Assembly (NCBI GenBank): GCA_020628375.1
Contig: JAHDFD010000027.1
Location: forward strand, 1 to 44,568
Origin: Chitinophagales bacterium
Lineage (GTDB): Bacteria; Bacteroidota; Bacteroidia; Chitinophagales; UBA2359
Reading direction: 5' to 3'
Length of the DNA stretch: 44,568 nucleotides
Below, piece after piece: positions 6,201 to 44,568 of this stretch. The translations under genes were made by a program, and so were the position numbers. The notes under the pieces are model-generated. The model had not been told where the DNA came from. It did not search any database and saw only the letters and a list, made by a program, of their open reading frames with translations. How positions within the stretch are numbered: the stretch's first letter is position 1; the number at the start of each line of letters is the position of its first letter.

Positions 6201-9200
6201 TGCTCTCCTATAAAAAACTCATCTCCTCCAGCCGTCGGGTCGTTAAAATCACCATAACCACATTCATCGCTTAATTCAAACCATTCATAAGTATATGGAG
6301 CTGTACCACCAGAACCTATTCCGTCCATACAAGCATCTCCACAGAATACATACAGATCTAAAGGAATAGTAGATAAACCATCAATTGAAACAAATTCTAA
6401 TTGAGGATTCGGAGGTGTAGCAGTTGCATCAGGGAAAACGTAGCCTGCATTCGCACAAGCCGCAGCAGTTACTTCAGGAATACCACCAACAGTGAAACAA
6501 ACCGAAGTTACATCTATACATTCGCTAGGATGTAATGGTTCAGGTGTGGTCATATCAGAACCAACTGCAATCGTTGTAGGACCAGTTGAAATTTGATAAT
6601 TTACTCCATAAATACAATAATCTCCTTCAGCAGCCGGTGTAAATACGCTTGTTGCTTGTAATCCCTGAACTACAATACCTGCAGCATCTGTAAGTACAAA
6701 TTCATAAGCATAATCTGCGCCTGTTTCTTGTCCTGTTGGTGTTAAGTCAGGAGAACTATCACCAATACAGAAATCTGTAACCGGATCAATAGTGCCTGCT
6801 TCAGCAGTACAACAAGAATAAATGAAAGTTTGTGTACAGGTAGCAGGGTTTCCACATTCATCGGTAATTGTATAAGTACGCGTTACTGTTGCCTCATTGC
6901 CTGCATTAGGACAAGCAGGGTCAGTTACATCAGCAAATGCAACTGTAAATGTTGTACTACAATTATCATTAATTGTACCTCCTAAAGCAATAAATCCAGC
7001 TTGATCTGTTGCACCAGGATTGTTTGCTAAGAAGTCAGCGTCATTATTATATAATGTTGTGTTATTAGCAGGGCAAGTGATTACTGGAGGATCTGTATCA
7101 GCATCAAATGTAAATGTCTGATCACATGTTGCAGGGTTACCACAAACATCAGTAATAGTATATGTTCTTGTAATTGTTCCTCCTGCACAAAAATCAATGT
7201 CAGTTATTGTCATATCATCAACAAAAGCAACTGTTAAATCTGCTTCATCTGTACAATTATCCGAGGCAGTTCCACCCAAACCAAGGAAAGCTGTTATATC
7301 TGTAACACCGGCAGGTAATGCATCGGTACAAGTTAAAGCTGTAATATTCGCAGGGCAAGTAATAACTGGCATATCAGTATCTGCATCGAATGTAAATGTT
7401 TGATCACAAGTAGCAGGGTTACCACATTCATCAGTAATCGTATAAGTTCTTGTTACAACAAAAGGACCATCAGCTGCACATAAACTAAAGGTTGTTGGAT
7501 CAACATCATCAACAAAACTAATTTGAGTAACATCAGGATTACAATTATCCGTAACAGTTCCACCTAATCCAGTAAAGCCAGCAATATCCGTTGCACCAGG
7601 ATAAGTTGTTGCAAAATCTGTTGTACAATCTAAACCTGAAACATTTGCAGGACATACAACTTGCGGCATTTCTGTATCTTCAATATAAATATCAACAGGG
7701 CAAGCGGTAGATACAGCACCAGCAGCGAATGTAAATTCAACTGTAATAGCATTTGCCTGACCACAAGCAGTTGGTAAAGTGTTTGCAGTATAATCGTTAC
7801 TTAAAGTAGTTGCAACACAATTAGTTGCAGCATCAACTCCAGCTTGTAATGCAGTAGTTGTAGCAGCAATAAAACCATCGACAGCAGTTTGATAATCCGT
7901 AGCACATAATACTAAGTCGTCTGGAGCAGCACAAACTGAAACGGTTACAGGTGTACCCGTAGTTTCACAAGTAGTACATCCATCGAAATCCCAAGTAGGC
8001 GTAAAAGTTACTTGCGTGCACGTTCCAGGTGCAGCAGGAGCCGTAACAGTAAAATCATCATCAGCACCTCCATCATCACGCGTCCAAACTAAAGCACCTG
8101 CACCAGTATAAGGATTAGCAGATGGTGCCCCTGTTGCAGGAACGCATTCTACCACATCAGCTGCAAATGTAAAAGTGTAATCTCCACAAGCAGCAGCAAC
8201 ATCTACACATTCGTTAACAATACGTGGAGTTACGACTTGTACGGTTTCAGTAGTTGTAGTTTGACACGTAGGGCAATTAGCATTTGTAATAGCATAGGTA
8301 ATATCATATTCACCACAAGCAACACATGCATCAATTTCAATCGAACCAGAAGCATCTGTACAATCTGTACCAGTTACTAAGTTATCACAAAGTGTTAAAC
8401 CTCCTGTTGTAGTCCAATCAAAAGAGAAGCCTGAATTAATAGCAGGTTGTGTAATAATCGTAGTAGCTGCACCTGCATTAAGACCTCCATTTTGCCATTG
8501 GTCAGCTCCACCAATAATTAAATCATTACCACAAAGGTCTGAGCAATTGATTACTGTAGCCGGAACATTGAAGTCAGAAGTTGGATATAGCACTTCAACA
8601 TCATAAGTTACATTTACAGACACATCTCCTCCTGCACAAGCTGCATTTTCAAACGTTATATCAATTGTTCCATCTTGACAAACAGTTCCTTCAGCTGTAA
8701 GACCATTAATTGTTTCAAATCTTCCTTCGCCTCCATCATCATATACAGATAGATTGTCAATTAAAACTGCTGAACTTAAGTCTTCTGACAATACATCAGA
8801 GGCATCTGAAACAACAAACGTATTACTACCAAAATTTGCTCCACAGCTATTTGCTGCTGTATAAGTTGCTTCTATAGTAGCACCACAAATTGCTTGAGCC
8901 ATTCCTAAGTTTTGTGTTACAGTGTTTCCAAGTGCCTCATCACCATCAAAAGCTACCGTAGATAGACCATTACACTCATCAGTTATTTCGACATCAACTT
9001 CAAAATCCCATGGAGCAATACCTGGCACGTCAATAGTTACCACAGCTGCGGCCCAGTTGTTATCATATGGTCCTTCCTCTAAAGTACCTGAGTTAGTATT
9101 ATTACCGCAATTATTAGTAGTACCATCTAAATCATCAGCATGGTTATCCGGAGCGCTATTCCATGGGAATGTTCCAAAATCACCAGAAGCATAAGTAATC

Positions 9201-9688: not shown

Positions 9689-11859
9689 TGTTTGTTTTTA
9701 GATTTAAAAATTTTATGTGTGTGAAATAAATTATTGTCCAATTGATTAACTATATAATATAAACCACTAGGCAAATATGAAGTATCCAAAATAATTTCAC
9801 CTTTAGTTTCAAAAGGGAGAATATCAATAATTTGCCCGATACTATTCAAAAAAATTAATTGAGAATTTTGAACCTTGGAAGATTCAATAATTAAGTGATC
9901 ATTAAATGGATTGGGATAAAAAACTAATTCGGACTGAGCTCCAACCTCATGAGTTCCTACATATTGAACATTTTCTTCAATTGTGTACTTCATTAAGTTT
10001 AAACCTCCTTTGCTGTTCCCTACAACTATATACTTGATATTGTTGTGTGTAAAAAATGCTGGTTTTGTAGCTTTTGATCTGAAATTGAGCGTATCTGTAG
10101 GCAAAAGTGTATTTGATGATAGAACATCAATATTTTCATAAAAGTACAGTTTTCCATCAACAGATCCTACATAAAAGTTTAAAGTATCATTTAGATATTC
10201 GATTGTAATAGTACTATTACCAGATGATGTACCAGGTACCTGAACATTAATGTTACTTATATATTCATTAGTTATTTCAAATTCAGGTATGTTAGATTCG
10301 TTCAGACCAATATTGGTCAACAACCCTACGGTCCCTGAACTTCTTCCAAAGATAATATCTGAAGCTCCATCGTTATTATAGTCAAAAGAAACAGGACTAG
10401 ATGCAGAACCAAAATCCAATTCGAAGCTACCATCTTCTCCAAGCAGATGCCCAAGATAAGTGTAATCGTTATTCTCGTTTAAAAAATAATGAAACTTTCC
10501 AGAAATAGCACCAATCACTATATCATCATCTCCATCTGCATCAAAATCGCCAAATGTTAAATCAAAATTTGAATCAGCAATTCCGGAAAAATCAAACAAC
10601 TCATTCGTCACTAATTCAAAAGAGGGAGTTTCTTCTGAACTGTTATTTCTTAGTATAGATAAATAAAAATCATTTTGATTTGTTTCTTGATTTCTAAAAT
10701 TATTGATAACAAGTATATCAATCAATCCATCTTTATTATAATCATACATTACCGGTTTTGAATAACGCCCTATATCGAACATAGTATTTACTAAAAAATC
10801 TTGTTGAACTAAGTTATATTCTCCTTCATTATTATCGTATAACCAAGCAATTTCAAAAGGTTCGTTACTAAAATTCTCATACTGTTTCGTAACCACTAAA
10901 TCTTCATCTCCATCGTTATCAGCATCAATAAAATTCGGAAGTGGACGACTATTAATTTCAGCAGGCTCATCAAAAGGAAAACCTTCAGAAAATGAACTAA
11001 AAAATGCTACATTTTCTATTCCTTCATTCAATAAAACCTTAAATCCTTCGAAGCGTGAATCACTCATTAACAAATCAACTTTACCGTCATCGTTTAAGTC
11101 TTTAACAAAAATTGAAGGAACAATATGAAGTTTTTCTTCAATTAAATCTGAATAGTCCAGTTTTGAGTTGCAGTCACTATTAAATATAAGACTGTCATTA
11201 TCAAATCGATACTGAAATTTGCCCCAACACTCATCAGAAAGATTAAAGAATAGGCTGTCGGGATTAGTAGAAAACTCAGAAGATATATTTTCAAAAAAGT
11301 TAATAAACTGTCCTGTTGGATCAAAGTGAATAAAGTCGATATCACCATCACTATCGGAATCAAAAAAAGCAGGGGTTTCATCGGCTACAATATTACCTAC
11401 TGTTGAGTTTATAAAATAAGACTCTGAAGCAAATTCTAAGAGCCCATTATTTATATTGCCCAAATAACAACTTATCTTGAAGTTGTCATTGGTAATAAGA
11501 TCTTTCACCCCATCCTCATTAAAATCTTCAATAAAAACAAAGTTAAGAACTTTTGTATCCTTGTAAGGATTTGCCGATACATGTACCCACTTATTATCAA
11601 CTGTCCATTCAAACACTTCAATTGAATTGTCTGCATCATCAAAAACAATTAAGTCATCATCACCATCAAGATCAAAATCAACTTTATGTAGTGAAGTCGC
11701 ATCCATTCCTCCTGCCCAGGGATTAACCAGAATTTCACCATCTTTTATAATGGTTATAGAATTATCTGGTTTCCATGAATAATTATCATTCTGAGCTTTT
11801 AAACAAAGATTGAAATTAAATAAAAATAAGAGAGCAAATATGCTTTTTGGGGAATACAA
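9685..11859 (-). CDS. T9SS-secreted FG-GAP/VCBS-like beta-propeller repeat protein (724 aa) with a C-terminal Por/T9SS sorting domain
   Basis: TTG start at 11859-11857 followed by a signal peptide (SIFALLFLFNFNLCLKAQ). Eight or more DxDxDGxxD-type repeats are present (DLDGDDDLIVFDD, DSDSDGDIDFIHFD, DADNDGDEDLVVT, DFDADGDDDIVIGA and others). The C-terminal ~80 aa (ELVFYPNPFNDHLIIE...LPSGLYYIVN) match the T9SS type A CTD. The stop TGA at 9685-9687 overlaps the ATG of the giant downstream gene as ATGA. Confidence 0.8.
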   Translation of the reverse strand: MYSPKSIFALLFLFNFNLCLKAQNDNYSWKPDNSITIIKDGEILVNPWAGGMDATSLHKVDFDLDGDDDLIVFDDADNSIEVFEWTVDNKWVHVSANPYKDTKVLNFVFIEDFNEDGVKDLITNDNFKISCYLGNINNGLLEFASESYFINSTVGNIVADETPAFFDSDSDGDIDFIHFDPTGQFINFFENISSEFSTNPDSLFFNLSDECWGKFQYRFDNDSLIFNSDCNSKLDYSDLIEEKLHIVPSIFVKDLNDDGKVDLLMSDSRFEGFKVLLNEGIENVAFFSSFSEGFPFDEPAEINSRPLPNFIDADNDGDEDLVVTKQYENFSNEPFEIAWLYDNNEGEYNLVQQDFLVNTMFDIGRYSKPVMYDYNKDGLIDILVINNFRNQETNQNDFYLSILRNNSSEETPSFELVTNELFDFSGIADSNFDLTFGDFDADGDDDIVIGAISGKFHYFLNENNDYTYLGHLLGEDGSFELDFGSASSPVSFDYNNDGASDIIFGRSSGTVGLLTNIGLNESNIPEFEITNEYISNINVQVPGTSSGNSTITIEYLNDTLNFYVGSVDGKLYFYENIDVLSSNTLLPTDTLNFRSKATKPAFFTHNNIKYIVVGNSKGGLNLMKYTIEENVQYVGTHEVGAQSELVFYPNPFNDHLIIESSKVQNSQLIFLNSIGQIIDILPFETKGEIILDTSYLPSGLYYIVNQLDNNLFHTHKIFKSKNKQ

Positions 11860-24823: not shown

Positions 24824-25165
24824 TTAATTATTTTTAAGGTTTTTCAAAACATTTAAAAGCGGTTGTTCTAATGACGGAATATCGAATTTTATTGTATTCC
24901 AAACAGTTTCTACGTCGGTTTTAAAATATTCGTGAATTAAAATATTTCTCATTCCTTTCATTATTCGCCACGGTATATTCTGACATTCATTTTTTGTTTG
25001 TTCTGTAACATTTGCCGATGCTTCGCCAATTATTTCAATTAAACGCTCGGCAGTTCGTTGGTAAATATTTTCATTTGAAAAGGTTGTAAAGTCAACATCA
25101 TCGAAAGTTTCAATTGCTTCTTTTATTATTTCAAGAATGTGATTAATTCGTTGTTTATCGGTCAT
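24824..25165 (-). CDS. hepT: HepT-like (DUF86) RNase toxin of a HepT/MNT toxin-antitoxin pair
   Basis: 113 aa. Rx4HxY motif RNILIHEY. Overlaps the upstream nucleotidyltransferase gene by 11 nt. Confidence 0.7.
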   Translation of the reverse strand: MTDKQRINHILEIIKEAIETFDDVDFTTFSNENIYQRTAERLIEIIGEASANVTEQTKNECQNIPWRIMKGMRNILIHEYFKTDVETVWNTIKFDIPSLEQPLLNVLKNLKNN

Positions 25166-26024
25166 AAATTAGAATTTTATCTCGTTCAAATCCTTCCTTT
25201 ACAAATGCTCGCAACGCCATTTTACTGGGTACTAAATCTACTTTTCTATTAAATGAATCTTCTAATTTTGCTTGTATTCTACTAATGATGAATAAACTTT
25301 TTTTACTACCTTCCGAAAATTCAATTAAAATGTCAATATCGCTATTTTCTGTTTGTTCTCCTCGTGCGAAAGAACCAAATAGATAGGCTTTGCTAACAGG
25401 TTCTTGCTCAAAAATTGATTGAGCTTTTTTTAAGTCTAAACTATTATTAACATCAATTTCTGATAGATTAAATTTATCTGCAATGTTCTCTAAGGCTCTT
25501 TCCAAATAACTTTTATCCTGGAAAACTTTCATGAGCATAACCGCGCCTTCAACTTGTGCAACAGCATCTTTAGCTTGCAAAATAGCTTCTTCTTCAGTAT
25601 AGCGTGTCTTAAACACATTAGCTAAAGCATCTATCCAATCGTTGAAGAATTTTCTGAAATACAAGGCAAAATTTTCATTCATGCTAACGGTTTCTAGGGC
25701 AATGTTACCCATTAAACAACCATCTGAAGCATCGAAAAAAGTTTTATAGCTGAACTCTTTGAACAGATTTAGTTTTTCTTTTACCTCCATACTTTCATCG
25801 TAAGCGATAGCAAACAAACTGTTTTTATAGCCTTTATACAACAGTTCCAAAACTGCTTCCATTATTTGTTCTTTACCTTTTGGGAAATGGTGGTATAAAC
25901 TTGCCTTTTGCAGTCCGCATGCTTCTGCAAGATCATTCATTGAGGTTTGATGATACCCCTGCTTCCAAAAAACCCGCATCGAGCTTTTAACTACTTCATC
26001 GGCTGAAACCTTCTTTTTTGGCAA
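25155..26024 (-). CDS. TetR-family HTH domain fused to an MNT-type nucleotidyltransferase (putative antitoxin/regulator, 289 aa)
   Basis: N-terminal TetR HTH SMNDLAEACGLQKASLYHHFPKGKEQIM plus a ~180-aa helical TetR body. C-terminal ~100 aa carry the minimal NTase motif AYLFGSFARGEQTENSDIDILIEF (GSx9-11DxD). Confidence 0.7.
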   Translation of the reverse strand: MPKKKVSADEVVKSSMRVFWKQGYHQTSMNDLAEACGLQKASLYHHFPKGKEQIMEAVLELLYKGYKNSLFAIAYDESMEVKEKLNLFKEFSYKTFFDASDGCLMGNIALETVSMNENFALYFRKFFNDWIDALANVFKTRYTEEEAILQAKDAVAQVEGAVMLMKVFQDKSYLERALENIADKFNLSEIDVNNSLDLKKAQSIFEQEPVSKAYLFGSFARGEQTENSDIDILIEFSEGSKKSLFIISRIQAKLEDSFNRKVDLVPSKMALRAFVKEGFERDKILIYDR

Positions 26025-30141: not shown

Positions 30142-31176
30142 ATGTTTAAATTTTATTATTCAATGATAAATTTTGCTTTAAACTCAATTGTATTGGCAAA
30201 CCCCTGGTGGTTGGTTTTACTATTGATCATACCTCTTTTGGCATTCTGGATATATCGAAACTATCATCGCCAGTATGCCGATATGAAATTCAATTCTGCT
30301 AATAAGGAAAAATCAGGTTTGACCTTAAAAGGCTTTCTTAGAAACAGTTTGGTTTTCACTAAGTTATTAGCGTTAACACTGCTGATCGTAGCAATGGCGC
30401 GCCCTCAAGATATGTTGCAGGAAGAAAAGGTTTCTACCGAAGGTATCGATATTGTTATAGCAATGGATATTTCGGGAAGTATGCAGGCAATGGACTTTGA
30501 GCCTGATCGCCTTGGTGCAGCAAAGAAAACAGCTTCCGATTTTGTTGATGCCCGTAAAGATGATAGAATTGGTTTGGTCGTATTTGCCGGTGAAAGCTTT
30601 ACACAATGTCCGGTTACCACTGACCATGCAATTTTAAACGTTTTAATGAAAGACCTCAGCAATGACAACTTGATCGAAGATGGTACTGCTATTGGTATGG
30701 GATTAGCAACAGCAATTAATCGTTTGAAAGATAGTCAATCGGAGAGTAAAGTCGTTATCTTACTAACCGATGGTGTGAATAATAAAGGTTTTATAGATCC
30801 AATGACGGCAGCAGAAACGGCTGAAGAATTCGGTATTAAAGTATATACAATCGGTATTGGAACAAAAGGGCAAGCGCCTTATCCTGCTCGTGATCTATTT
30901 GGTAGAACCGTAACCAGAATGATGGAAGTTCAGATAGACGAAGAATTACTTGAACAAATTGCTACTATGACGGGTGGCCAGTATTTCCGTGCGACAGATA
31001 ATAATAGTCTGAAAGATATTTATGCTGAAATTGATAAAATGGAAAAAACAGAAGTAGAGATCAGTTCAATTCGTCGTTTTACAGAACGTTTTCATCCACT
31101 TGCGATCTTAGCAGTTGCTATTCTTTCTTTAGACTTATTGCTTCGATTAACTATTTTACGAGGCTTGACTGGTTAG
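30142..31176 (+). CDS. batA: BatA-like membrane-anchored von Willebrand factor A (VWA) domain protein
   Basis: N-terminal TM segment WWLVLLLIIPLLAFW, MIDAS motif DISGSM, C-terminal TM segment. 344 aa. Confidence 0.75.
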   Translation: MFKFYYSMINFALNSIVLANPWWLVLLLIIPLLAFWIYRNYHRQYADMKFNSANKEKSGLTLKGFLRNSLVFTKLLALTLLIVAMARPQDMLQEEKVSTEGIDIVIAMDISGSMQAMDFEPDRLGAAKKTASDFVDARKDDRIGLVVFAGESFTQCPVTTDHAILNVLMKDLSNDNLIEDGTAIGMGLATAINRLKDSQSESKVVILLTDGVNNKGFIDPMTAAETAEEFGIKVYTIGIGTKGQAPYPARDLFGRTVTRMMEVQIDEELLEQIATMTGGQYFRATDNNSLKDIYAEIDKMEKTEVEISSIRRFTERFHPLAILAVAILSLDLLLRLTILRGLTG

Positions 31177-33854: not shown

Positions 33855-34020
33855 CTAGGGGATACCTGCCTTCGCAGGTATGACTGATAGAAGTGTTGGA
33901 TACCAAACATTCACAAGTATGGGTTGATTGAAGTGTTGGATACCCAAACATTTGCAGGTATGACTGATAGAAGTGTTGGATACCCAACATTTGCGGGTAT
34001 GACTGATAGAAGTATTGATT
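33855..34020 (+). repeat. Tandem array (4 units of ~40 bp) of a hairpin-containing repeat, consensus GGATACC(C)AAACATTTGCAGGTATGACTGATAGAAGTGTT
   Basis: The first unit ctaggggatacctgccttcgcaggtatgactgatagaagtgttggatacc contains the inverted repeat atacctgc/gcaggtat. Positions 33855-33906 are identical to 36041-36092. Confidence 0.9.
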
Positions 34021-36000
34021 TTAAAAGTTCATGATCTCTAAATAATGTGAGGTGTAATAGTTACCCCAAATCAGTAAATTTTCTCCATCGAACAAAACTC
34101 TTCTAGGACTCGTTATTGGTTCATATTCCGCATAAATTTCATTATTGGAATAATCGAATTCAACGATCTTTTGTTGGTTACTTGGCACAATAAATACTGA
34201 ATATAAATTGCTTGAGTTAAAGGTAAAATCCCACCAAAAAGAACCTCCATTTAACTGTCCTAAATATTCTGGATTTTCACCAAAACTTGCTCTGTGTCCT
34301 TCAGATCCACTTACAAACATATTTTCGTAAGGTGCCAATACAATTTGTTGGTGGTCGAAGCTTGAACTTACAAAATAAGTAGTAGATGGATTAATGAACT
34401 CACCATATTGTGTCACCTCAAACTGATAAATATTCGTATAGGTCAAATAAAAAAGTGTTCTTATACCATCAGCTTTTCTGTATGCAATTTTGCTATAAGA
34501 GGCGGTATCGAATAATTCATCGTTAATGGTTAAATCATCTCGACTGTAAGAACGCAATCCTCTGAAGGCATTGACGGATGCGCTTAAATTATGCGTGGCA
34601 TAAATATTTCCTGTTCCATCTGTAGTTACGAATGCTGTTTCCTGATCGGGGTAACTTCCTGATCCATTTGGCCCTTTACCTGTATAAATATGATCTAACT
34701 CGTTAAAAGTATTTACATTGTAAATCCTGATCTTACTATCATCACAACCGACATAAAGTTCCAGACCGTAGCCATTATCTCCTATGGCAAAGCAGGTAGC
34801 ACGTACAGGAATATCAATCGTTTTATTAACTACATTATTTATATAATCGAATTCTGTTATCTCTAATCCATCTGAACGTAATAGATACACTAGTTTCTCT
34901 TCAGGGTGTAAGATCATATCTTTTATGTCGAAATCAAAAGCAGCATTATTCTGAGTAAAAATATGCTCTGAATTTGATTCAACAACCTGATTATTCTCAG
35001 TCTCAACAGTTATAAAATAGCAATAATCTGTTTGAAAAGCTATATTTCCATCTGTATGAGTCGTAATCATTGGATCATCAAATTCAGCGATCAATGTAGG
35101 TTCATAAGCATAACAATCGTAGGCATGTCTGTAAACTTTATAGGCTTCAAAATCCTCACCTGTATAAGCACTCCAATTTAATTCGATGGTATTCCCCACT
35201 AATTGTGGAGGATCTAAAACGACAGGTTCTACTTTATTCACTGTTAGGAAAAATTCTTTTTCCAGACCATAAGCATCGGGTAAATAGCTATCATTTCTTA
35301 CATAAACGGAAATATAATGCTTGCCTTCACTCAGTCTTTCAGTGAAATCTATTTTGCCTTCGCTATTCAAATTTCCTTCAAAGAAAACACCATCCAAATC
35401 GCTATTCCATCTTGTAATAAGGGTTTCTACATTTTCGGGTGCTTCGAGGTAGTAAAAGAAATAATCTGCTTCAAACGGAATATCTTCATCAGGACCATAA
35501 AGTTGCCCATGGGGTTTTAGAATCTCTATATTAATATCTACATAATCTTCATCTAATGGAGAAGGTACCGCCACAAGTTCAACCAAAGTGCCATCTTCTT
35601 CTACTTCGATATATCTAGTAGTTGTATTTGTAACAGTTCCAGAGGTGAAACCAGAGAAAGAATACTTTTCATCGGTTGTAATGGTAATTTGATACTCACC
35701 AGTCGTGACATTCTCGAAAATAAGGTCTCCATTTTCATCTGTAAAACCGATCAGATCAGTGTCGTTCACCACAACTTCTACATCTTCAAGGGGTAATAAT
35801 CCGGAATCAACAATATAACCAGTATTAGGGCTTAGATCTAGTTGAACTTTAATCGTTAGCGTAGCTGTTTGTTCTCCAAAGATCAAAGTGCCGGCATCTT
35901 CATCTTTGTTACAGCTTGAAAGTATAAACACAAATAGCAATAATAGAAGGGATAATTGATGTTTCATCTGGGATGGGGTTGATGTGATATTTGATTGCAA
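34021..36000 (-). CDS. Lipoprotein of unknown function with an N-terminal carboxypeptidase-regulatory-like beta-sandwich region and a Y/W-rich C-terminal half
   Basis: The most likely start is the second Met (MKHQLSLLLLLFVFILSSC, a lipoprotein signal) at 35967. The rest is an unknown domain, and the Y/W-rich C-terminal half may be a propeller. Repeat arrays flank the gene on both sides. Confidence 0.6.
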   Translation of the reverse strand: MQSNITSTPSQMKHQLSLLLLLFVFILSSCNKDEDAGTLIFGEQTATLTIKVQLDLSPNTGYIVDSGLLPLEDVEVVVNDTDLIGFTDENGDLIFENVTTGEYQITITTDEKYSFSGFTSGTVTNTTTRYIEVEEDGTLVELVAVPSPLDEDYVDINIEILKPHGQLYGPDEDIPFEADYFFYYLEAPENVETLITRWNSDLDGVFFEGNLNSEGKIDFTERLSEGKHYISVYVRNDSYLPDAYGLEKEFFLTVNKVEPVVLDPPQLVGNTIELNWSAYTGEDFEAYKVYRHAYDCYAYEPTLIAEFDDPMITTHTDGNIAFQTDYCYFITVETENNQVVESNSEHIFTQNNAAFDFDIKDMILHPEEKLVYLLRSDGLEITEFDYINNVVNKTIDIPVRATCFAIGDNGYGLELYVGCDDSKIRIYNVNTFNELDHIYTGKGPNGSGSYPDQETAFVTTDGTGNIYATHNLSASVNAFRGLRSYSRDDLTINDELFDTASYSKIAYRKADGIRTLFYLTYTNIYQFEVTQYGEFINPSTTYFVSSSFDHQQIVLAPYENMFVSGSEGHRASFGENPEYLGQLNGGSFWWDFTFNSSNLYSVFIVPSNQQKIVEFDYSNNEIYAEYEPITSPRRVLFDGENLLIWGNYYTSHYLEIMNF

Positions 36001-36040
36001 AGGTAGTGAATATTTGAGAGGTTGTATTATGTGGCTTTAG

Positions 36041-36298
36041 CTAGGGGATACCTGCCTTCGCAGGTATGACTGATAGAAGTGTTGGATACCAACATACGCT
36101 GGTGTGCCTGATTGAAGTGTTTATTGGGGATAACTGCCTTCACAGGTATGACTGGGAGAAGTGTAGGATACCAACATAAGCTGGTGTGCCTGATTGAAGT
36201 GTTTATTGGGGATAACTGCCTTCACAGGTATGACTGGTTGAAGTGTTTATTGGGGATACTTGCATTCGCAGGTATGACTGATTGAAGTGTAATGTCTG
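36041..36298 (+). repeat. Tandem array (~6 units) of the same hairpin repeat family, organised as a 2-unit (~82 bp) higher-order repeat
   Basis: The first unit is identical to the first unit of the array at 33855. Units alternate between ggataccaacata[c/a]gctggtgtgcctgattgaagtgtttatt and ggggataactgccttcacaggtatgactgg..gaagtgt. Confidence 0.9.
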
Positions 36299-39200
36299 TT
36301 ACCACCAATCGGGTGGTTGAATAGAAAGATCGTTCAGGAGTTTACGGATGCCTTCGAGGCTGTCTTTATATTCGCCGAAGTGGCTGGCGATATCGCTGAG
36401 GGCAGAATCATTTTTGGCCTTTTTGTTTTCTGAAAAAATAGTTTTTATTTGTTCCCAACGTTTTTGCTCTCCAGCATTAGCCAAACCAACCAAAGCTTTA
36501 AACTTCAATAAATTGGCTTCTGAACCATTGGTCAAGGTTTGGCTTTCGTTTTCGTAGTGAGAAACAATAAGCGTTTCCAATTCTTTATCGTTCATGATCG
36601 GTACTAACTTCTCTACCATTTTATTCATATTACGATACGAGCCTTGCAGTTTAAATGGTGGTTCGGTTCTATATTCATCATTGATAGAAGCCGAGCGAAT
36701 ATATTCCTGATTTACATTTAAAACTACATCTCTCACTCTTATCATTTTTTCAATGATAGATACATAATCGTTTATTTCTTCTGGGCTGTGTTTGTGTACC
36801 AATGTAATTCCTTCCTGGTTTCCTTGTTGAGCAATTTTAATAATATTTTTCACATCATCTGTACCCTTAGCCGTCAATTTTTGCAGAATGGGGTTAGAAG
36901 TCATGGCATTTTCAAGATAACTTAATTCAAATTCTGCTTTGGCATCGCCTAATATATCTCCTAAGTTGTAAATATCGGCACGGTTGGCTAACATATCAGG
37001 AATCTGGAATTTCTCTCCACTTTCAGTATATGGATTTCCCGCCATAACCACACAAACTTTCTTGCCTCTGAAATCGTAGGTTTTAGTTTTGCCTTTGTAA
37101 GTACCTTCAATTTTGCGTTGCGCATCACATAATGAAATAAATTTCTGTAAAAACTCTGGATGGCAATGTTGGATATCATCTAAATAGATCATTACATTAT
37201 CGCCCATTTCAAAAGCAAGGTTCAATTTTTCCAATTCTTGTTTTGCTCCTGCTGAATCGGCTTGCATCGGATCAACAGAAGTGATATAATGTCCCAATGC
37301 AGGACCGTTGATCTTCATAAAAACCAAGCCCAAACGATTGGAAAGGTATTCCATTAAAGTGGTTTTACCATATCCCGGTGGTGAGATCAGTAAGAGCAAT
37401 CCCATACGATCGGTTCGCTGTGTATCACCAACCGAACCAATTTGCTTCGATAAATTATCTCCTAAGATCGGTAAATACACTTTGTCGATCAATTCGTTTC
37501 TCACAAAAGAAGATAACACTCGCGGTTTGAATTCTTCCAAACGCATATTGGCTTTTTCTTCTTCAATAACTTGCCTTTTTAAATCCTGATAGGCTTTGTA
37601 AGCCATTACTGTTTCTGCATCGAATTTCTTCAGCTTATTAATGAACGCTAAAAACTCTATGGAATAAGTTCCTTTTTCGATGAGCTTATGATCGCCCAAC
37701 ATTTCGTTTAAATGTATGCTCGTATTGGTATCGTTAATGCGCCATTTTGCTTTTTCATTCCAAAGAAATGAAGCAATGCCCTGATAACGCCAACGCTCAT
37801 CTGCATTTTCAATTGCCAGAAATGCCAAAACCCATTTACCTATTAACTGGAAGCGTTCGATTGGCTTTTCCTTCAGTGCTTCCAAAGAGCTATTGTATCC
37901 TTTTTCTGATTTTGTTTCTTTTAAATATTGAATTAAAGATTCGGCTAATTCTTTGTCTGTTAAGGAAACGATATAATCTTTTTGCTTCAATAATTCTTCA
38001 TATAAATAAGCAGCTGCTAAGCGGGTATTAAATTCAAAATTGAGTGCTGCGCTTTCTTTGAATTCAATTATTTTTTCTTCCAATTTGTCAATCAGGTAGA
38101 AGAATTGTTTCGATTCAGGAAAGACCTTTAATACTTGAGCTGCACCATTGATCTCATTCTGAAAATCAGTTTTAAATCCTTCATTTTCCAAGCCTTCCCA
38201 AAACAGTAAAGCCGCTGCTCTTTCTTCGGGTCCGAACTTTAACAGATCAATATTTTCATCTATTTCTATAAGGCGATCCAATATTTTTTTGGCGTCTTCA
38301 TTATGTACACCTTTTACATAAGATTCCTGTATTCTCGAATCGATGATCTTATTGATAAATGGAATTTTTTCATCTTCAGCAAGTCCTTTGTAAGTATCTT
38401 TCAGCAGTTTATTAAAAATACTGAATGCTAAAAATTCTGCCCGATAAACCAGTTCATTTTCAGAGATCAATTGCTGATTCCAGAAAGGTTTTGTTTCTAT
38501 AAAATCGGCGTTGGTAATGGGTTCAAAAAAGTTCGTTCCCATTAAGTGAAAGCACATATCTTCACCTTGTGGTACTATACTCAGATCTAGTTTTTGCGTA
38601 TTAACAGAAAACTGATGCTTACCAAGCTTGATGATATTTTCACCATCGACAAAGAGTTCGTTTTTATCTTTCAGTTGTCGGACTGCCTCTTCTTTAGCTG
38701 CTTTTAATTGTGCTGCAACATCGTCTGACTTGACCGGATCTTCCAAGGTTCTTAACTGCGAAGAAATATCGCGCACCTTCTCCACCATCAGATCGGCAGC
38801 GAAATAAGCATTGATCTCATCATTGGTTTTGAAAGTCGCCAGTTTATTTTTTATACCTTTCAGAATCCTTTCAGCTGAATTCATTAAGGCATTTGTTTTA
38901 CGGTTATAAGCTTCGACTAACTGTAATTTACGATTTTCAAATGCCTCGTAAATTTCTTCTCTTTTTTCAGCTATTTCAACAGTAAATTCATCGTAATCGG
39001 CAAATTTCCCTTCTAAGTCTTCGAGCTGAACCATTAATTTATTCAGATATTCATCGGCTTGAACTGGTGTTTCTACAACTGATAAATAATTAATTAAACT
39101 CTGATCAAGTAATTTCGCTTGTGCTGAAAAGTTGGCTACCGATTCTGTTCCTCTTAATTCATTCAAACGCTGTTTGAGAACAGATTTCGATTTATTCAAA

Positions 39201-41176
39201 TTGGCGAAGATGGCAGAAATACTGTCTATGATCTTGGTAGTTTGTGTGGCATCTTCAATCTTAAGATTTCCAACTATTTCGATCAGCATTTTTAAATCCT
39301 GTCCTATAACATCTATTTCTTCATCTAACTTTTTAGCTTGCGTTGCGCTCTTTAGCTCAGGAATTAGTTTGTTTTTTGCTTCAACATCCTCGATATAAGG
39401 GGCAAGTGCTTTATCTGAACTAAGGAATTTTACACAATTTTCTGAAACCTTATCACTTTGTTCTACTAGTTTTTGTTCTAATACTTCTACTCTCTCTAAA
39501 TCAATATATCTCAATTCTTTGAGGGAAATAGTCTCCCCTCTTATGATTCGGAAATCGTTTAGAACCTGAACATAATCATTGATCGATTCAAAACGTAAGT
39601 ATTTGGTTTTTTCCAGTTGTTCTTCGATCTTTTTTTCTAGCTCTTCAAAACTTTTCGCTGTACTTTTCTTGATGCTTTGGACTTTATCGAACTCATCAAT
39701 AGCTGCGGTTGCCGTCTTTCTGATCGAAGTAATTGGTTCTTGTAAATTAAAAGCCTGTTCTTCACCGATCCAGTAATAAGCATCGATTATATCATTGGAT
39801 TTTTTACTCAGATCATAGTATAGATCCTGATAGGAATCTTCTTTATTCAGTAAAGCTATCAGCTCATAAGCCTCTGCCATTGCTTTAACAATGTCTTTAT
39901 TACCGACTTTATACAAATAGCTGTCTTTCAAATCGGAAGGAGCTTCGGTGCTTTGTGTATAGGGCGTTTGCCAGATTTGGATTACATGGTGTTTGGTACT
40001 TTCTTCTTCAGATTTAAAGTAAGCCATTTCACCATTTGGGAATAAGGTAAATCCATTACAGATCACTGGATTCTCTACCTGTTGTTCAATAATGTTATAA
40101 GAAAGCAGGATATAAACGTTCTGTTCAGGTGAAAAGAAAATGTATAAGAAATCTTCTCCATTGGGTGATGATAGCTTTTGCTCAAATTTAAGTCCTTCGA
40201 GTTTATTATCGAAAAACTTGTATTGCCCTGTTTGCAGATAATAACCATTTGAGAATATCAATCCCTGATCGTCAGGTAATAAAATTGCAGCACTAGCGAT
40301 AGTATCTATTCTTTTTGCTTCTTTAACCTTATCGTTATAAATGAAGTATCTGTAATCTTCTTGATAAGGTCTTATTTTAAGCGCGAATAAGTTACCTAAA
40401 TCGGCATAATAATATTCACCATCATCCAGTTTTTGTTCTTTTTGAGCAACTTCTTCAGCATAAATACCTTTTCCATCATCGGTATTATCTTCAATTTTGA
40501 TCGTTATATCACCACCAACTGCTTCAACAAATAATTTATCTTTTATGGAAACATGTGGATGTTTTCCATCTCTGAAATCATCTCTTCTTAATCTACTCCA
40601 CGAAAAATCGAGCTGTTCCGGAAATTTATATTCATGATCACTTCTGTCATCTACATATTGAAGTTCATTTTCTTTTATTAACCATTTAAAGGTTTTGATA
40701 TCACCTATATTTTTACTTACCTGAAAAACCATATACAGGTAATTTCCTATTCGGGCAAATTTGGTAAATACAGTTTCTCTGTAATATTTATAAAGATTTT
40801 TAAAAGAATCGATAAATTTTTCGTCTGAAAGAAGCTTTACTTCTTGTTCCTGAAAGGCATTATTACTGAATTTATAAATGCTGAAAACATCTTCAATTTT
40901 AATTTCGGAGCGTAAGCCAATATGTACATTATAGCCAAATAAAACCGTATCTCCCAATGCAAAAATATCTCTGGCAATACAGTTATTAGATGTATTGATC
41001 CTATCGGTCGCCAGCAGCTTTGTTTCGATAGAACCGAATACTTTTTTTCTTTCTGTATTCAGTTGATCAAGTCGCTTACTTAATTCACCTTGTTGTTTCA
41101 GTAAACGGGTTCTGATTATACCATAAGTATCTCCTTCAAGTTGAGTTGTCTGATTTATATTTTTCTCTTCCTGCAT
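36299..41176 (-). CDS. Giant (1625 aa) protein. The C-terminal region is a MoxR/AAA_5-type ATPase, and the N-terminal ~1250 aa are uncharacterised, with a long central coiled-coil or helical region.
   Basis: Walker A LLLISPPGYGKTTL. Walker B and sensor region MIYLDDIQHCHPEFLQKFISLCD resemble the MoxR DEINRApPevqsaLL pattern. KKVCVVMAGNPYTESGEKFQIPDMLANRADIY resembles the MoxR ATQNP...LPEAQLDRF pattern. The middle 700 aa are E/K/L-rich heptad-like sequence. Confidence 0.75.
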   Translation of the reverse strand: MQEEKNINQTTQLEGDTYGIIRTRLLKQQGELSKRLDQLNTERKKVFGSIETKLLATDRINTSNNCIARDIFALGDTVLFGYNVHIGLRSEIKIEDVFSIYKFSNNAFQEQEVKLLSDEKFIDSFKNLYKYYRETVFTKFARIGNYLYMVFQVSKNIGDIKTFKWLIKENELQYVDDRSDHEYKFPEQLDFSWSRLRRDDFRDGKHPHVSIKDKLFVEAVGGDITIKIEDNTDDGKGIYAEEVAQKEQKLDDGEYYYADLGNLFALKIRPYQEDYRYFIYNDKVKEAKRIDTIASAAILLPDDQGLIFSNGYYLQTGQYKFFDNKLEGLKFEQKLSSPNGEDFLYIFFSPEQNVYILLSYNIIEQQVENPVICNGFTLFPNGEMAYFKSEEESTKHHVIQIWQTPYTQSTEAPSDLKDSYLYKVGNKDIVKAMAEAYELIALLNKEDSYQDLYYDLSKKSNDIIDAYYWIGEEQAFNLQEPITSIRKTATAAIDEFDKVQSIKKSTAKSFEELEKKIEEQLEKTKYLRFESINDYVQVLNDFRIIRGETISLKELRYIDLERVEVLEQKLVEQSDKVSENCVKFLSSDKALAPYIEDVEAKNKLIPELKSATQAKKLDEEIDVIGQDLKMLIEIVGNLKIEDATQTTKIIDSISAIFANLNKSKSVLKQRLNELRGTESVANFSAQAKLLDQSLINYLSVVETPVQADEYLNKLMVQLEDLEGKFADYDEFTVEIAEKREEIYEAFENRKLQLVEAYNRKTNALMNSAERILKGIKNKLATFKTNDEINAYFAADLMVEKVRDISSQLRTLEDPVKSDDVAAQLKAAKEEAVRQLKDKNELFVDGENIIKLGKHQFSVNTQKLDLSIVPQGEDMCFHLMGTNFFEPITNADFIETKPFWNQQLISENELVYRAEFLAFSIFNKLLKDTYKGLAEDEKIPFINKIIDSRIQESYVKGVHNEDAKKILDRLIEIDENIDLLKFGPEERAAALLFWEGLENEGFKTDFQNEINGAAQVLKVFPESKQFFYLIDKLEEKIIEFKESAALNFEFNTRLAAAYLYEELLKQKDYIVSLTDKELAESLIQYLKETKSEKGYNSSLEALKEKPIERFQLIGKWVLAFLAIENADERWRYQGIASFLWNEKAKWRINDTNTSIHLNEMLGDHKLIEKGTYSIEFLAFINKLKKFDAETVMAYKAYQDLKRQVIEEEKANMRLEEFKPRVLSSFVRNELIDKVYLPILGDNLSKQIGSVGDTQRTDRMGLLLLISPPGYGKTTLMEYLSNRLGLVFMKINGPALGHYITSVDPMQADSAGAKQELEKLNLAFEMGDNVMIYLDDIQHCHPEFLQKFISLCDAQRKIEGTYKGKTKTYDFRGKKVCVVMAGNPYTESGEKFQIPDMLANRADIYNLGDILGDAKAEFELSYLENAMTSNPILQKLTAKGTDDVKNIIKIAQQGNQEGITLVHKHSPEEINDYVSIIEKMIRVRDVVLNVNQEYIRSASINDEYRTEPPFKLQGSYRNMNKMVEKLVPIMNDKELETLIVSHYENESQTLTNGSEANLLKFKALVGLANAGEQKRWEQIKTIFSENKKAKNDSALSDIASHFGEYKDSLEGIRKLLNDLSIQPPDWW

Positions 41177-41311: not shown

Positions 41312-43402
41312 TTAAAAGAAATTATCAATTCCTACATTCCCCATACCTAAATGCTTAACTGAATTTATCATTGTTTGAATTATATCTTTATCATTATCAC
41401 CAGCCTGACTATACATTTTCATTAGGAAGGCACTTAAAGTAAGATTTTTAAGTGTATCAGAATCAAAACCAGATTTTGCTATTAGCTTTCCAATTCGAGT
41501 AGATAAATCTTCTCCGCTTCCATTTTCAGCAAGTAGCATTTGTTTTACACTTGAAATCGTTTCGCTTTCATTTACTAATCTATCAATCCCTTTGGCTCTG
41601 CTTATTTGCTTCATTATATTCTCGAAGAACATTGTTTCACCACCGACTATATCAATATTAGAATTTTTAAGTGCTTCAGCAAGTGTATTGGCTTGTGCTT
41701 GTGCTATGGCCTCCTGAATATTAATATTTGCAAGTTCGATTTCCTTTTCCTTTTCAAGCTGAAGTTTGAACTCTTCGTGTTCTTTACCTACACCATCTAA
41801 TTTTTTCATTGCTTCGGCTTTCTCTTCAATCCCTAATGCTTCGGCTTTTGCTTGTTCTTCTATTACATGAGCTTCGGCTACTCCTTGCTCTTTTATAATT
41901 TGTGCTTCTACTAAGCCTCTTTCTTTTTCAGCTTCTGCTTTAATTCTTATACTTTCGGCTTCGGCTTTTGCAGTTGCTTCGATCACTTTAGCTTCAGCTA
42001 AACCTTCAACTTCTAAAGCTTGAGCTTTTGCTTCAATTACTTGTGCTTCTGATTTTCCAACTGCTGCTTCTTCATTTGCTTTTGCTTCTGCAATTATTTT
42101 TCTGGCTTCAGCTTCTTTTACCGAAGCATTCTTTTTAGCTTCGGCTTCAATAAGTGCTTGTTCCGCTTCTAGTTTTGAGGCTTCTTTTGCCGCTTCAGCT
42201 CGCTGTACGTGTTTAATCAATTCTTGTTCTGCTTCTTGTTCGGCTGCTGTTACAGCTACTTGTTTAGACCTGTCAGCTTCAGCAAATGCCTTTGTATCTT
42301 TAATTTTCTCTTCTTCCGCTACAACTTCTTTTTCTACCATTACTCTTTCACGAATAACATCCTGTATATTCTTTCGCTCAACCTCTAATACTTTTTCTTT
42401 TTCTATCTCGGCAAGTGTAACTATTCTTTCCCTTTCTGTTACTTCTAATAACCTGTCTTTTTCTACTCTTTCAGCTTCAATGGCTTCCGTTCTTTCTTTA
42501 TTTTTTAATGCAACTATAACCTGTCGTTCCTTATTTGCTTCAGCAATTTCTATTTCCTCATCAGTAGCAATTCTTGCTGATTCCATTTTTAATCTTTCCT
42601 CATGTGCTACTTTCTCAGCTTCTGCTGTTTCTCTTGATTGGATATTAGCGATTTCTCTTTTTTGTTTTTCTTCTTTTTCAGCTAGTTGTCTATCTAACTC
42701 AAGAATTGCCTCTCTTGCTTCAACATCTTGTTTTTTAATAACTTTTTCTTCTTCTCTTCTTATTAGATTGGCTTTCATATTCTGTTCCGCAGTCAATTCT
42801 GTGATCTTCTTAATACCTTCTGCATCTAAAATATTATCAGCTCGTAAAAATTCAACTGGTGTTTGTTCTAAATAATCTATAGCGGCATCATCTAAAAGAT
42901 AGCCATTTAAGTCAGTACCTATTATATCTAAAATTTCTTGTTTAAATTCTTTTCTGGAATCATAAAGCTGAACAAAATCGAATTTTTTACCTACCGTTTT
43001 CAGTGCCTCTGAAAATTTCGCTTCAAATAATTCATTTAGTGTTGTAATATCTGATGCTCTTTCACAACCAATTGATTGCGCTACTTTTTTAACTTCTGCT
43101 GTTTCAGGATTTACACGAACAAAAAAAGCTACTTTAATATCAGCACGCATATTATCACGGCATATTAAACCATCTTTTCCCATACGATGAATCTCTACTT
43201 TCTTCACTGAAATATCCATAATTTCGCCTTTATGAATAACAGGAATTACCATCATTCCTTCAAAAGCGACCTGGGTTCCTCCAACACCTGTTCTCACCAA
43301 TGCCTTTCCCTGAGAGATCTTCTTAAAAAAGCTAACGGTAACGATAGCACCAATAATAATTACAAAAATTAAAATACCGAGCACGATGAATGCGATTTCC
43401 AT
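41312..43402 (-). CDS. Flotillin-family (SPFH/band-7) protein, YqiK/FloT-like
   Basis: N-terminal TM segment followed by an SPFH domain, then a ~300-aa EA-rich coiled coil (AEAEA repeats) and a C-terminal flotillin tail. 696 aa. Confidence 0.85.
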   Translation of the reverse strand: MEIAFIVLGILIFVIIIGAIVTVSFFKKISQGKALVRTGVGGTQVAFEGMMVIPVIHKGEIMDISVKKVEIHRMGKDGLICRDNMRADIKVAFFVRVNPETAEVKKVAQSIGCERASDITTLNELFEAKFSEALKTVGKKFDFVQLYDSRKEFKQEILDIIGTDLNGYLLDDAAIDYLEQTPVEFLRADNILDAEGIKKITELTAEQNMKANLIRREEEKVIKKQDVEAREAILELDRQLAEKEEKQKREIANIQSRETAEAEKVAHEERLKMESARIATDEEIEIAEANKERQVIVALKNKERTEAIEAERVEKDRLLEVTERERIVTLAEIEKEKVLEVERKNIQDVIRERVMVEKEVVAEEEKIKDTKAFAEADRSKQVAVTAAEQEAEQELIKHVQRAEAAKEASKLEAEQALIEAEAKKNASVKEAEARKIIAEAKANEEAAVGKSEAQVIEAKAQALEVEGLAEAKVIEATAKAEAESIRIKAEAEKERGLVEAQIIKEQGVAEAHVIEEQAKAEALGIEEKAEAMKKLDGVGKEHEEFKLQLEKEKEIELANINIQEAIAQAQANTLAEALKNSNIDIVGGETMFFENIMKQISRAKGIDRLVNESETISSVKQMLLAENGSGEDLSTRIGKLIAKSGFDSDTLKNLTLSAFLMKMYSQAGDNDKDIIQTMINSVKHLGMGNVGIDNFF

Positions 43403-43479: not shown

Positions 43480-44178
43480 TCAAATTTCTTCTACTTTTTG
43501 AACATTATAGTAGTTCTCTTTGCTTTTATCAACGACTATACATTGAAAGCCTTTAGGAATAATACCTTTAACGGACTTAATATTGATGGTAATAATTCTG
43601 CCATTGTCAACTGCCTCAGCCTGACCGATTCTTTGTTCAGTTGCTTCTAAAATAACCTTACAAAGTTTTCCTTCAATGGTAGTTTCAGCATTGCCTTTTC
43701 TATTAAGTTTACTGAACATTCCACTAAATGGAGTTAATAAAAATTTAGTGATGAATAGGCTTATTATAAAATTAGGAATTAAGTATAACATACTTAAGCC
43801 TAAACTACCATTATTAAAATATTGGTTTGAATATAGGGAAATACCCCACATAACTGCAACCAAACAGGTAACGATTACAATCACTGGCATTTTTCCAAAA
43901 TGAAAGAATCTAAGCAGTTCTATCATAGTGTCTTCACCAAAACCAGCTCCTCCGGTTTTAGAATTAAGTTCAAGATCACTATCAACATCAGCGTCTAAGT
44001 CTATATCAGTATCTGCATCTAAGTCAAAATCAAAAGAATCAAAGTCGAGTACTCCAATTAAAGAGACTATATTCAATCCGAGGAAAAACAACAAGAGTAA
44101 AGTGAGTAATAGGTTCTCTGGTGCAAAAGCGATATGAATAATGTCTGTCATGATAAGTATAAATATAACTATACTCAA
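43480..44178 (-). CDS. NfeD/YqiJ-like membrane protein with a C-terminal OB-fold domain, the canonical partner of flotillin
   Basis: N-terminal TM segments, an acidic D-rich linker (DFDSFDFDLDADTDIDLDADVDSD), a second TM block, and a C-terminal ~70-aa beta-rich domain GKLCKVILEATEQRIGQAEAVDNGRIITINIKSVKG typical of NfeD short forms. 232 aa. Confidence 0.65.
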   Translation of the reverse strand: MSIVIFILIMTDIIHIAFAPENLLLTLLLLFFLGLNIVSLIGVLDFDSFDFDLDADTDIDLDADVDSDLELNSKTGGAGFGEDTMIELLRFFHFGKMPVIVIVTCLVAVMWGISLYSNQYFNNGSLGLSMLYLIPNFIISLFITKFLLTPFSGMFSKLNRKGNAETTIEGKLCKVILEATEQRIGQAEAVDNGRIITINIKSVKGIIPKGFQCIVVDKSKENYYNVQKVEEI

Positions 44179-44224: not shown

Positions 44225-44568
44225 CTAATCCTCAATGAAATGAAAATAAGATTTAGTTCTTGCTCCATTAGGATTAAGGCCCCCATAATCACCAGTTGAA
44301 ACTGTAATTCTGATAATCGAAGATTCGATTTTATTCTTTTTTCTTAATCTATTTTCAATTTTAAGGGCTAATTTTTCAAGTTCATTGTCAAAACGGTCCC
44401 TGTCGACGTAAGGGTTAAAGGCGTAGAATAAATAATCACTAGAACCCATGATAGTCACATGCATCTCATTGTATCTATATTTACTTGGATGTCCATCAAT
44501 ATCTACCATTCTTACTTTCACTTTTCTAGCCAAAGTATGAAAAGCAATATACCGTTCAAGATTAGTCA
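44225..44568 (-). CDS. Hypothetical protein, 5'-partial (reading frame stays open to the window end). It is the first visible gene of the flotillin/ATPase operon.
   Basis: The frame carrying ...TNLERYIAFHTLARKVKVRMVDIDGHPSKYRYNEMHVTIMGSS... is open with no in-frame stop up to 44568. I recognise no domain. Confidence 0.45.
   Translation of the reverse strand, partial: TNLERYIAFHTLARKVKVRMVDIDGHPSKYRYNEMHVTIMGSSDYLFYAFNPYVDRDRFDNELEKLALKIENRLRKKNKIESSIIRITVSTGDYGGLNPNGARTKSYFHFIED

Follow-up and report, generated by a model that had tools for sequence, protein, structure and literature searches.

The pairing of SPFH2-type flotillins with NfeD2-type proteins, YqiK with YqiJ, has been known since 2009 (PMC2636767), and in 2024 Popp et al. 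(mSystems, PMC11237479) described an operon in which CesT/Tir, PspA, YqiJ/YuaF and flotillin genes accompany a gene for a protein with a beta-propeller, a coiled coil and an AAA-ATPase. The supplementary table of that article carries the entry 'Betapropeller+Coiled-coil+AAA-ATPase' for Dokdonia donghaensis, and its account of the operon records a PLD gene in some Proteobacteria, as well as abbreviated operons without PspA that are more widespread. Here we analyse a protein of this kind, a 1625-residue ATPase encoded on contig JAHDFD010000027.1 of a Chitinophagales bacterium (assembly GCA_020628375.1); the window, the whole stretch of DNA analysed, is this entire contig of 44568 nt. The protein agrees in domain order and size with the published account of the operon, and so do the two genes upstream of it, for a YqiJ/YuaF-like protein with three transmembrane segments and for a flotillin with transmembrane, SPFH and coiled-coil parts; the window operon fits the 'abbreviated operon' of that account (PMC11237479). 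Compared with the fuller relatives (27–29 of 65), the window lacks the CesT–PspA dyad and a divergent helix-turn-helix (HTH) regulator. The ATPase is a new member of a known, catalogued family, in the ordinary, short three-gene form of its operon. As a genome-scan finding it is not a discovery, since the architecture is in Pfam and in the operon description of 2024 (PMC11237479); a preliminary description of this DNA had considered it unusual, which it is not. Three things go beyond the published account of the operon: in the models, the 'coiled coil' becomes a rod like spectrin repeats and an extra conserved module, the motor is CbbQ/NorQ-like, and the Walker B motif has DD.

Each part of the protein has its own closest known system. 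MoxR ATPases are typically stand-alone proteins of ~300–350 residues with a VWA/MIDAS partner gene, whereas the window ATPase has 1625 residues and no such gene linked to it. The closest solved structures of its motor are the MoxR-class ATPases CbbQ (PDB 6l1q) and NorQ (PDB 9qh4), but sequence identity is only 12–13%, and unlike CbbQ and NorQ the window protein has ~1250 extra N-terminal and ~100 extra C-terminal residues, DD rather than DE in Walker B, no linked VWA gene and no match to Pfam AAA_3. Dynein and midasin (Rea1/Mdn1) string six AAA modules along each chain where the window protein has one, and beyond the motor no homology is detectable. For the rod of the protein, the spectrin and plakin repeat rods are among the closest known systems. 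Vps4 and ESCRT-III offer a functional analogy: here as there, an AAA+ ATPase has a genetic link to a polymer that remodels membranes, and PspA belongs to the ESCRT-III superfamily. According to a 2025 review, a Vps4-like regulator of PspA 'appears absent in bacteria' (PMC7619361). HflK/C–FtsH and the stomatin–NfeD pairs couple an SPFH scaffold to an AAA+ protease or to an NfeD protein; what they have in common with the present system is an SPFH-family scaffold that is encoded with an NfeD-type partner (SPFH2–NfeD2, the YqiK–YqiJ pair; PMC2636767) and functionally tied to an AAA+ machine. FtsH, however, is a membrane-anchored AAA protease of the classical clade, whereas the window ATPase is soluble, MoxR-class and free of any protease domain. 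As the function of this family we lean, with no great confidence, towards a MoxR-class AAA+ motor that uses ATP to remodel membrane assemblies of flotillin or PspA.

The ATPase gene, its family and its operon

The ATPase is the last gene of a three-gene run on the minus strand:

36299..41176, minus strand: whole gene of a cytoplasmic ATPase with DUF3686, DUF7902 and AAA+ domains (open reading frame, Pfam, homologues, lack of transmembrane segments)
41312..43402, minus strand: YqiK-type flotillin (SPFH2) of 696 residues, upstream of the ATPase (YqiK BLAST, transmembrane segment, synteny)
43480..44178, minus strand: YqiJ/YuaF-like (NfeD2-type) membrane protein of 232 residues, first gene of the operon (Pfam YqiJ_N)

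The preliminary description had placed a 1625-residue protein at 36299–41176 without giving its strand, and the open reading frame (ORF) is indeed intact there, on the minus strand, with an ATG start and 1625 codons. The chain has a mass of ~186 kDa, and the GC content of the gene (0.33–0.38) equals that of the remaining contig. With no hydrophobic transmembrane segment in the sequence (the highest 19-residue Kyte–Doolittle mean is 1.06), the ATPase is predicted to be soluble and cytoplasmic. A search of 5.8 billion proteins returned 3738 significant matches, and the best 120 of these are all 1610–1752 residues long with an identical Pfam order; the nearest relatives are just 55–56% identical to the window ATPase. 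By profile search, proteins of this architecture, 38–44% identical and 1636–1999 residues long, were also found in Gammaproteobacteria, Acidobacteriota, Planctomycetota and Persicimonas. At least 579 species from seven or more phyla, scanned at one genome per species, have a colinear match, and tblastn matches in 80 genomes are mostly colinear from residue ~1–13 to residue ~1610–1620. PDB sequence searches, with the single sequence and with a profile of 70 sequences, gave only P-loop-level matches to VCP, Rix7 and RuvB, and no solved structure of a relative.

The length of the ORF raises the question, foreseen in the preliminary description, of whether an assembly or frameshift artefact has joined two genes. 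We found no supporting point for this: the colinear architecture and the length recur across many phyla, in thousands of separately assembled genomes, and in the homologue alignments conservation runs unbroken over the full length of the protein. Because more than 3700 proteins and the genomes of at least 579 species share the colinear architecture, the ORF is not a fusion artefact, and the chance that it is one is vanishingly small. The N-terminal part does not appear to have a life of its own elsewhere. When the first 468 residues were searched against 1.84 billion representatives of 50% identity clusters, 700 matches were obtained, and DUF3686 is N-terminal in each full-length match among them (1600–2036 residues), so this domain is essentially private to the DUF3686–DUF7902–AAA+ architecture.

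The flotillin gene lies 135 nt upstream of the ATPase on the same strand. Its product is not matched by Pfam Band_7 even at E ≤ 10 and gives nothing meaningful in a PDB sequence search; aligned directly with E. coli YqiK, it is 29% identical over 441 residues (E = 4e-48), which settles its identity as a flotillin. One N-terminal transmembrane segment (residues 1–31) is followed by the SPFH domain and a long E/A-rich helical region, and the protein is 47–61% identical to the protein encoded immediately before the ATPase in three related loci (L001–L003). The 232-residue protein matches Pfam YqiJ_N (24.8 bits, cutoff 23), is not significantly similar to E. coli YqiJ in a direct BLAST comparison and is 30–32% identical to the product of the equivalent gene in L001 and L002. 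It has about three transmembrane segments (hydrophobic stretches 12–49, 88–118 and 125–155). No PspA, CesT or YjfI gene was found in the window by tblastn, and beyond the start of the YqiJ-like gene the contig continues for only 390 nt; lacking PspA and CesT, the window operon is the short three-gene form.

This arrangement is conserved. We surveyed 80 loci from different species, of which 66 have enough upstream sequence for flotillin to be scored; the other genes were counted over 65. In 63 of the 66, the nearest gene upstream on the ATPase strand is flotillin-like (median gap 202 nt), and a YqiJ-like gene accompanies the ATPase in 58 of 65, so that linkage of the ATPase to flotillin and YqiJ is near-obligate. 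PspA (29/65) and a CesT-like gene (27/65) are found less often; flotillin is the constant partner and PspA a facultative one. Unbiased clustering of all ORFs of the 80 loci brought out one more recurrent gene, for a divergent 251-residue HTH regulator (28 loci), and neither a VWA gene nor a conserved downstream gene. The arrangement is repeated in a JGI Bacteroidota genome, in Aquimarina litoralis, where CesT_Tir–PspA(–YbjQ) is added upstream, and in Pseudomonas sihuiensis, with YjfI(DUF2170)–PspA upstream and a rhomboid gene and a PLD-family gene downstream. In this last locus (L003, 13238–15090), the rhomboid protease gene overlaps the ATPase stop and is followed by a PLDc_2 gene and a gene for a 200-residue protein without assignment. 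The PLD gene agrees with the published note on Proteobacteria; the operon account that contains this note does not mention a rhomboid (Popp et al., PMC11237479).

Domains of the chain

Two AlphaFold2 models built on the 70-sequence alignment cover the chain, and both are confident: residues 1–851 have a predicted local distance difference test (pLDDT) score of 87.1, and residues 831–1625 a pLDDT of 86.4 and a predicted template modelling score (pTM) of 0.75. Invariance was judged in homologue alignments of 20 and 70 sequences. From the N terminus, the models and domain matches divide the protein as follows:

41036..41164, minus strand: N-terminal long alpha-helix, residues 5–47 (AlphaFold2 helix 5–47)
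39968..41020, minus strand: predicted divergent beta-propeller, residues 53–403, core of DUF3686 (Pfam, AlphaFold2, Foldseek)
38642..39919, minus strand: helical rod, residues 420–845, predicted to resemble tandem spectrin-type three-helix bundles (AlphaFold2)
37532..38641, minus strand: conserved middle module, residues 846–1215 (AlphaFold2, pLDDT ~75–96), predicted to comprise a small beta unit (848–886), a helical domain (912–1138), a second small beta unit (1145–1174) and a long connector helix into the ATPase (1175–1211)
36947..37414, minus strand: AAA+ alpha/beta core, residues 1255–1410 (Pfam, AlphaFold2, motifs)
36323..36946, minus strand: AAA+ lid and C-terminal helical extension, residues 1411–1618 (AlphaFold2 helices, invariant columns)

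The motor is the best conserved portion of the protein. Pfam AAA_5 and AAA match residues 1261–1386 (AAA_5 at 33.4 bits, cutoff 22), and AAA_3, the family of MoxR proper, finds no match even at E ≤ 10. Walker A reads SPPGYGKTT (residues 1265–1273, nt 37358–37384; GYGKTT at 1268–1273) and Walker B reads YLDDIQH (residues 1331–1337, nt 37166–37186, minus strand), within the stretch VMIYLDD. In place of the canonical hhhhDE, Walker B is hhhhDD throughout the family, with D1333, D1334, Q1336 and H1337 invariant and the catalytic Glu absent in all 70 homologues. The segment AGNPYTESGEKFQIPDMLANRAD (residues 1379–1401, nt 36974–37042) contains the sensor-1 residue N1381 and a putative arginine finger, R1399, and in the C-terminal part an invariant QGSYRNM (residues 1511–1517, nt 36626–36646) provides R1515 as candidate sensor-2 arginine. 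All residues of SPPGYGKTT, LDDIQH, MAGNPYTESG, PDMLANRAD and QGSYRNM fall in invariant columns of both alignments, and the usual catalytic positions are all invariant save the Walker B Glu. C-terminal tails were compared for an HbYX-like docking motif, which is unlikely, the tails being unconserved.

The fold points to a class. In the AlphaFold2 model, a pre-sensor-1 beta-hairpin (strands 1355–1360 and 1363–1368, nt 37073–37114) stands directly before the sensor-1 strand (1374–1380), and the ~18 residues between beta2 and helix alpha2 (1291–1308) form a loop and a short helix, not a hairpin. The motor is neither closest to structures of the classical AAA clade (Vps4, p97, FtsH) nor devoid of the pre-sensor-1 hairpin, and on its predicted fold we assign it to the MoxR-class AAA+ ATPases. 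The MoxR-type assignment of the preliminary description is therefore right, as are the motifs it quoted (GYGKTT, YLDDIQH and AGNPYTESGEKFQIPDMLANRAD) and the ~1250 residues that it placed ahead of the ATPase. The start of the ATPase, put at about residue 1280, has to be moved, because the AAA+ core begins near residue 1255.

The N-terminal 450 residues, previously thought to hold no recognisable motif, are almost entirely accounted for by Pfam DUF3686 (PF12458), which matches residues 31–468 over its full profile (1–448 of 448; 604.9 bits, cutoff 25, E = 9.2e-182). The leading helix has a pLDDT of 40–65 for its first 20 residues and 88–96 for residues 21–50, and R24, L25, L39, N40, R43 and F47 are invariant in the 70 homologues. 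Behind it, the models show ~27 strands, mostly at pLDDT 83–96, a number that would correspond to roughly seven four-stranded blades. The preliminary description had suggested a structure prediction and a Foldseek search of this end of the protein, with nuclease among the folds to look for. Against the PDB, the beta domain retrieves mainly beta-propellers, with the WDR domain of DCAF1 (E 4.6e-6, TMt 0.43), Vps18, CyRPA, prolyl oligopeptidase and PON1 among the matches, and no nuclease domain appeared in the Pfam, NCBIfam, PDB or fold searches. The propeller matches have a Foldseek probability of ~1, yet their TM-scores are low and their root-mean-square deviations high, and the DUF3686 beta domain is predicted to be a divergent propeller without a close solved relative. 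An acidic loop of the propeller, EDNTDDGKG (residues 229–237, nt 40466–40492, minus strand; family consensus of the stretch VEDNTEDGxGIY), lies in a stretch with the invariant residues K227, E229, N231, T232, G235, G237, Y239 and E241. By its sequence it is faintly like a calcium-binding loop of the DxDxDG type and is a candidate functional site.

Between propeller and motor, residues 450–1150 had been read as one E/K/L-rich helical stretch resembling a coiled coil. The composition stands (E, K and L make up 33.5% of residues 411–845 and 36% of residues 911–1140), but the models show a rod, beta units and a helical domain in place of a single coiled coil. The rod is predicted to consist of 15 helices of 4–58 residues each, joined by short loops, and contains Pfam DUF7902 (PF25472; residues 589–672, nt 39161–39412, 92.3 bits, cutoff 26, E 2.3e-26). 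In the fold search it resembles spectrin, plakin and plectin repeat arrays. There are no sequence repeats between its helical segments (hhalign probabilities ≤ 3.7%), so the modelled rod is like spectrin in structure alone. For the middle module, in which G852, E906, R912, L916, G956, H958 and D961 are invariant, Pfam returns nothing even at E ≤ 10. Overall, what the preliminary description observed is confirmed, and its interpretation is supported in part.

Other features of the contig

The neighbours of the operon in the window are housekeeping genes, and scans of the whole contig with Rfam and for tRNA genes found nothing. A consensus scan for promoters and terminators over the operon gave counts not above those in shuffled sequence. 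At the contig edge, just upstream of the YqiJ-like gene, lies an ORF of 102 residues (44225–44533, minus strand). Pfam, NCBIfam and PADLOC do not match it, and none of the 80 related loci has an equivalent; comparison with the Aquimarina locus led us to reject it as the YbjQ-like protein found there. Downstream of the ATPase, a gene at 34021–36000 (minus strand) encodes a predicted lipoprotein of 659 residues with weak signals of CarboxypepD_reg-like and PQQ-type beta-propeller repeats, and other genomes do not keep it beside the ATPase.

Between the ATPase stop codon and this gene, we identified a tandem array of a 29-nt hairpin-forming element, GGGGATACCTGCCTTCGCAGGTATGACTG, with a spacing of 41/82 nt (four copies, 36002–36291). 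A fifth copy at 33858–33886 lies just past a gene ending at 33843, and none of the five would be expected by chance. The array looks like an intergenic palindromic repeat of the repetitive extragenic palindromic (REP)-like kind or a terminator array; folding of the 301-nt region is just slightly better than that of shuffled sequence (z = −1.96).

Farther away, a stop-free frame of at least 3232 codons (2–9697, minus strand) runs off the left end of the contig; it matches HYR_4C, a proprotein-convertase P-domain and PKD-like domains and probably encodes a giant secreted or surface adhesin. Next to it, a gene at 9685–11859 (minus strand) encodes a 724-residue FG-GAP protein with a Por_Secre_tail of the type IX secretion system (T9SS). 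An ORF of 289 residues at 25155–26024 (minus strand) combines TetR_N, TetR_C and an MNT-type nucleotidyltransferase (NTP_transf_2), and is followed, with an 11-nt overlap, by a gene for a HepT-like RNase of 113 residues (24824–25165, minus strand). The two may be a HEPN–MNT toxin–antitoxin pair in which the antitoxin is fused to a TetR regulator.

Possible functions of the ATPase

The intact ORF, the domain order, the MoxR-class fold, the lack of transmembrane segments and the near-obligate linkage to flotillin and YqiJ are what the analysis shows. In the reading we favour, the ATPase would be the third component of a module made up of the YqiJ/NfeD2-like protein with three transmembrane segments, the YqiK-type flotillin and the ATPase itself. 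Ahead of the motor, the chain would present in turn the N-terminal helix, the propeller as a docking domain, the spectrin-repeat-like rod of ~425 residues and the middle module, and the motor may form a ring or hexamer, like other ATPases of the MoxR class. Carried at the rod's end, the propeller would bind the flotillin/YqiJ scaffold at the inner face of the cytoplasmic membrane, with the rod probably serving as a spacer; in many relatives the propeller may also bind a polymer of PspA (bacterial ESCRT-III) brought by the CesT-like chaperone. The preliminary description had suggested a molecular ruler or tether for the helical region, a role that would be compatible with this picture. Under envelope stress the AAA+ ring would use ATP to assemble, disassemble or turn over sub-membrane oligomers, the direction being presumed, much as Vps4 acts on ESCRT-III, and CbbQ and NorQ on their partner complexes. 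The built-in propeller would replace the usual VWA adaptor.

Several points weigh against remodelling of this kind. Gene linkage is the whole basis for physical contact with flotillin, YqiJ or PspA, and our literature searches on the family found no experimental study of any member. PspA and CesT are absent from the window, and in three of the 66 loci (L029, L038 and L047) the ATPase is an orphan, with no flotillin-like or YqiJ-like gene within 10 kb. In E. coli, yqiJK functions in the absence of such an ATPase, so the ATPase is accessory to flotillin function instead of belonging to its core. A VWA partner, through which motors of the MoxR class normally act, is not linked to the gene. Because the catalytic position of Walker B is occupied by Asp, ATP turnover may also be slow or switch-like, not processive.

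This last feature gives some room to a structural role, in which the protein forms a spectrin-like or coat-like skeleton under flotillin microdomains and the AAA+ domain only controls its own oligomerisation. The invariant DD could signal a slow nucleotide switch, the rod is like the spectrin, plakin and plectin arrays, and Foldseek lists Vps18, IFT-A and a chain of the nuclear pore complex, albeit at very low TM-scores (0.11–0.26). These coat-protein matches are weak, however, the helical segments lack sequence repeats, and the Walker A Lys, sensor-1 Asn, arginine finger and candidate sensor-2 residue are invariant in a motor that is the most conserved part of the chain, which argues for an active enzyme; we regard a purely structural role as unlikely. 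A role in phage defence is rather less likely still. The protein would then be the sensor or motor of an anti-phage or abortive-infection system, whose flotillin and YqiJ, joined in some Proteobacteria by PLD and rhomboid proteins, damage or seal the membrane. Conflict systems often contain large NTPases whose sensors are propeller or repeat domains, PspA has historically been tied to phage stress, and the rhomboid protease and PLD-family hydrolase that continue the Pseudomonas sihuiensis operon are possible effectors. But PADLOC found no match in the five proteins scanned (the ATPase and four neighbours), the GC content equals that of the remaining contig and the window neighbours are housekeeping genes; moreover, the stable synteny and partner set in at least 579 species are unlike patchy, variable defence islands, and synteny of this stability across phyla looks like that of a housekeeping stress system.

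The similarity of the motor to CbbQ and NorQ suggests yet another possibility, that of a canonical MoxR chaperone which works with a VWA/MIDAS partner in cofactor insertion or enzyme activation, as in CbbQ–CbbO, NorQ–NorD and RavA–ViaA, and the window does contain a VWA/BatA-type gene (30142–31176). That gene lies 5 kb away on the other strand, and we rejected it as the partner, as it is not conserved near the ATPase elsewhere: no VWA cluster was found in the 80 other loci. The protein is also five times the size of MoxR, its own propeller could replace a VWA adaptor and AAA_3 does not match it, all of which renders a canonical chaperone highly improbable. We give slightly less credence again to the function that databases assign, an ATPase acting in DNA repair. 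Its support consists of inherited names, in the Pfam description of PF12458 ('ATPase involved in DNA repair') and the NCBI product name ('DNA repair ATPase'), and of a weak RuvB_N/RuvB match confined to the P-loop (residues 1252–1295), which is all that the NCBIfam scan returned and lies far under threshold (18.5 bits, cutoff 282). The domain to which the name is attached is predicted to be a beta-propeller and not an ATPase; Pfam, NCBIfam, PDB sequence and fold searches brought up no domain for DNA binding and none of nuclease, helicase or SMC type; and the conserved neighbours are all membrane proteins (flotillin, YqiJ, PspA), with no repair gene among them. 'DNA repair ATPase' should be treated as a misnomer without support from sequence, fold or gene context.

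ATP-driven remodelling of flotillin or PspA assemblies can also be put in a more specific form, which we hold only tentatively and consider doubtful as a whole: the family would be the missing dedicated remodeller of flotillin (SPFH2) cages and, where it is co-encoded, of PspA/ESCRT-III polymers, with the rod acting as a ruler that places the propeller at a defined site of the flotillin/YqiJ scaffold. If this were true, the family would correspond in function to Vps4, with a motor of the MoxR class, and so be the regulator that reviews say bacteria lack. A motor that is nearly always encoded beside flotillin is a concrete, testable candidate for the turnover of flotillin and PspA scaffolds, and the family, being widespread, large and well conserved, is a good experimental target.

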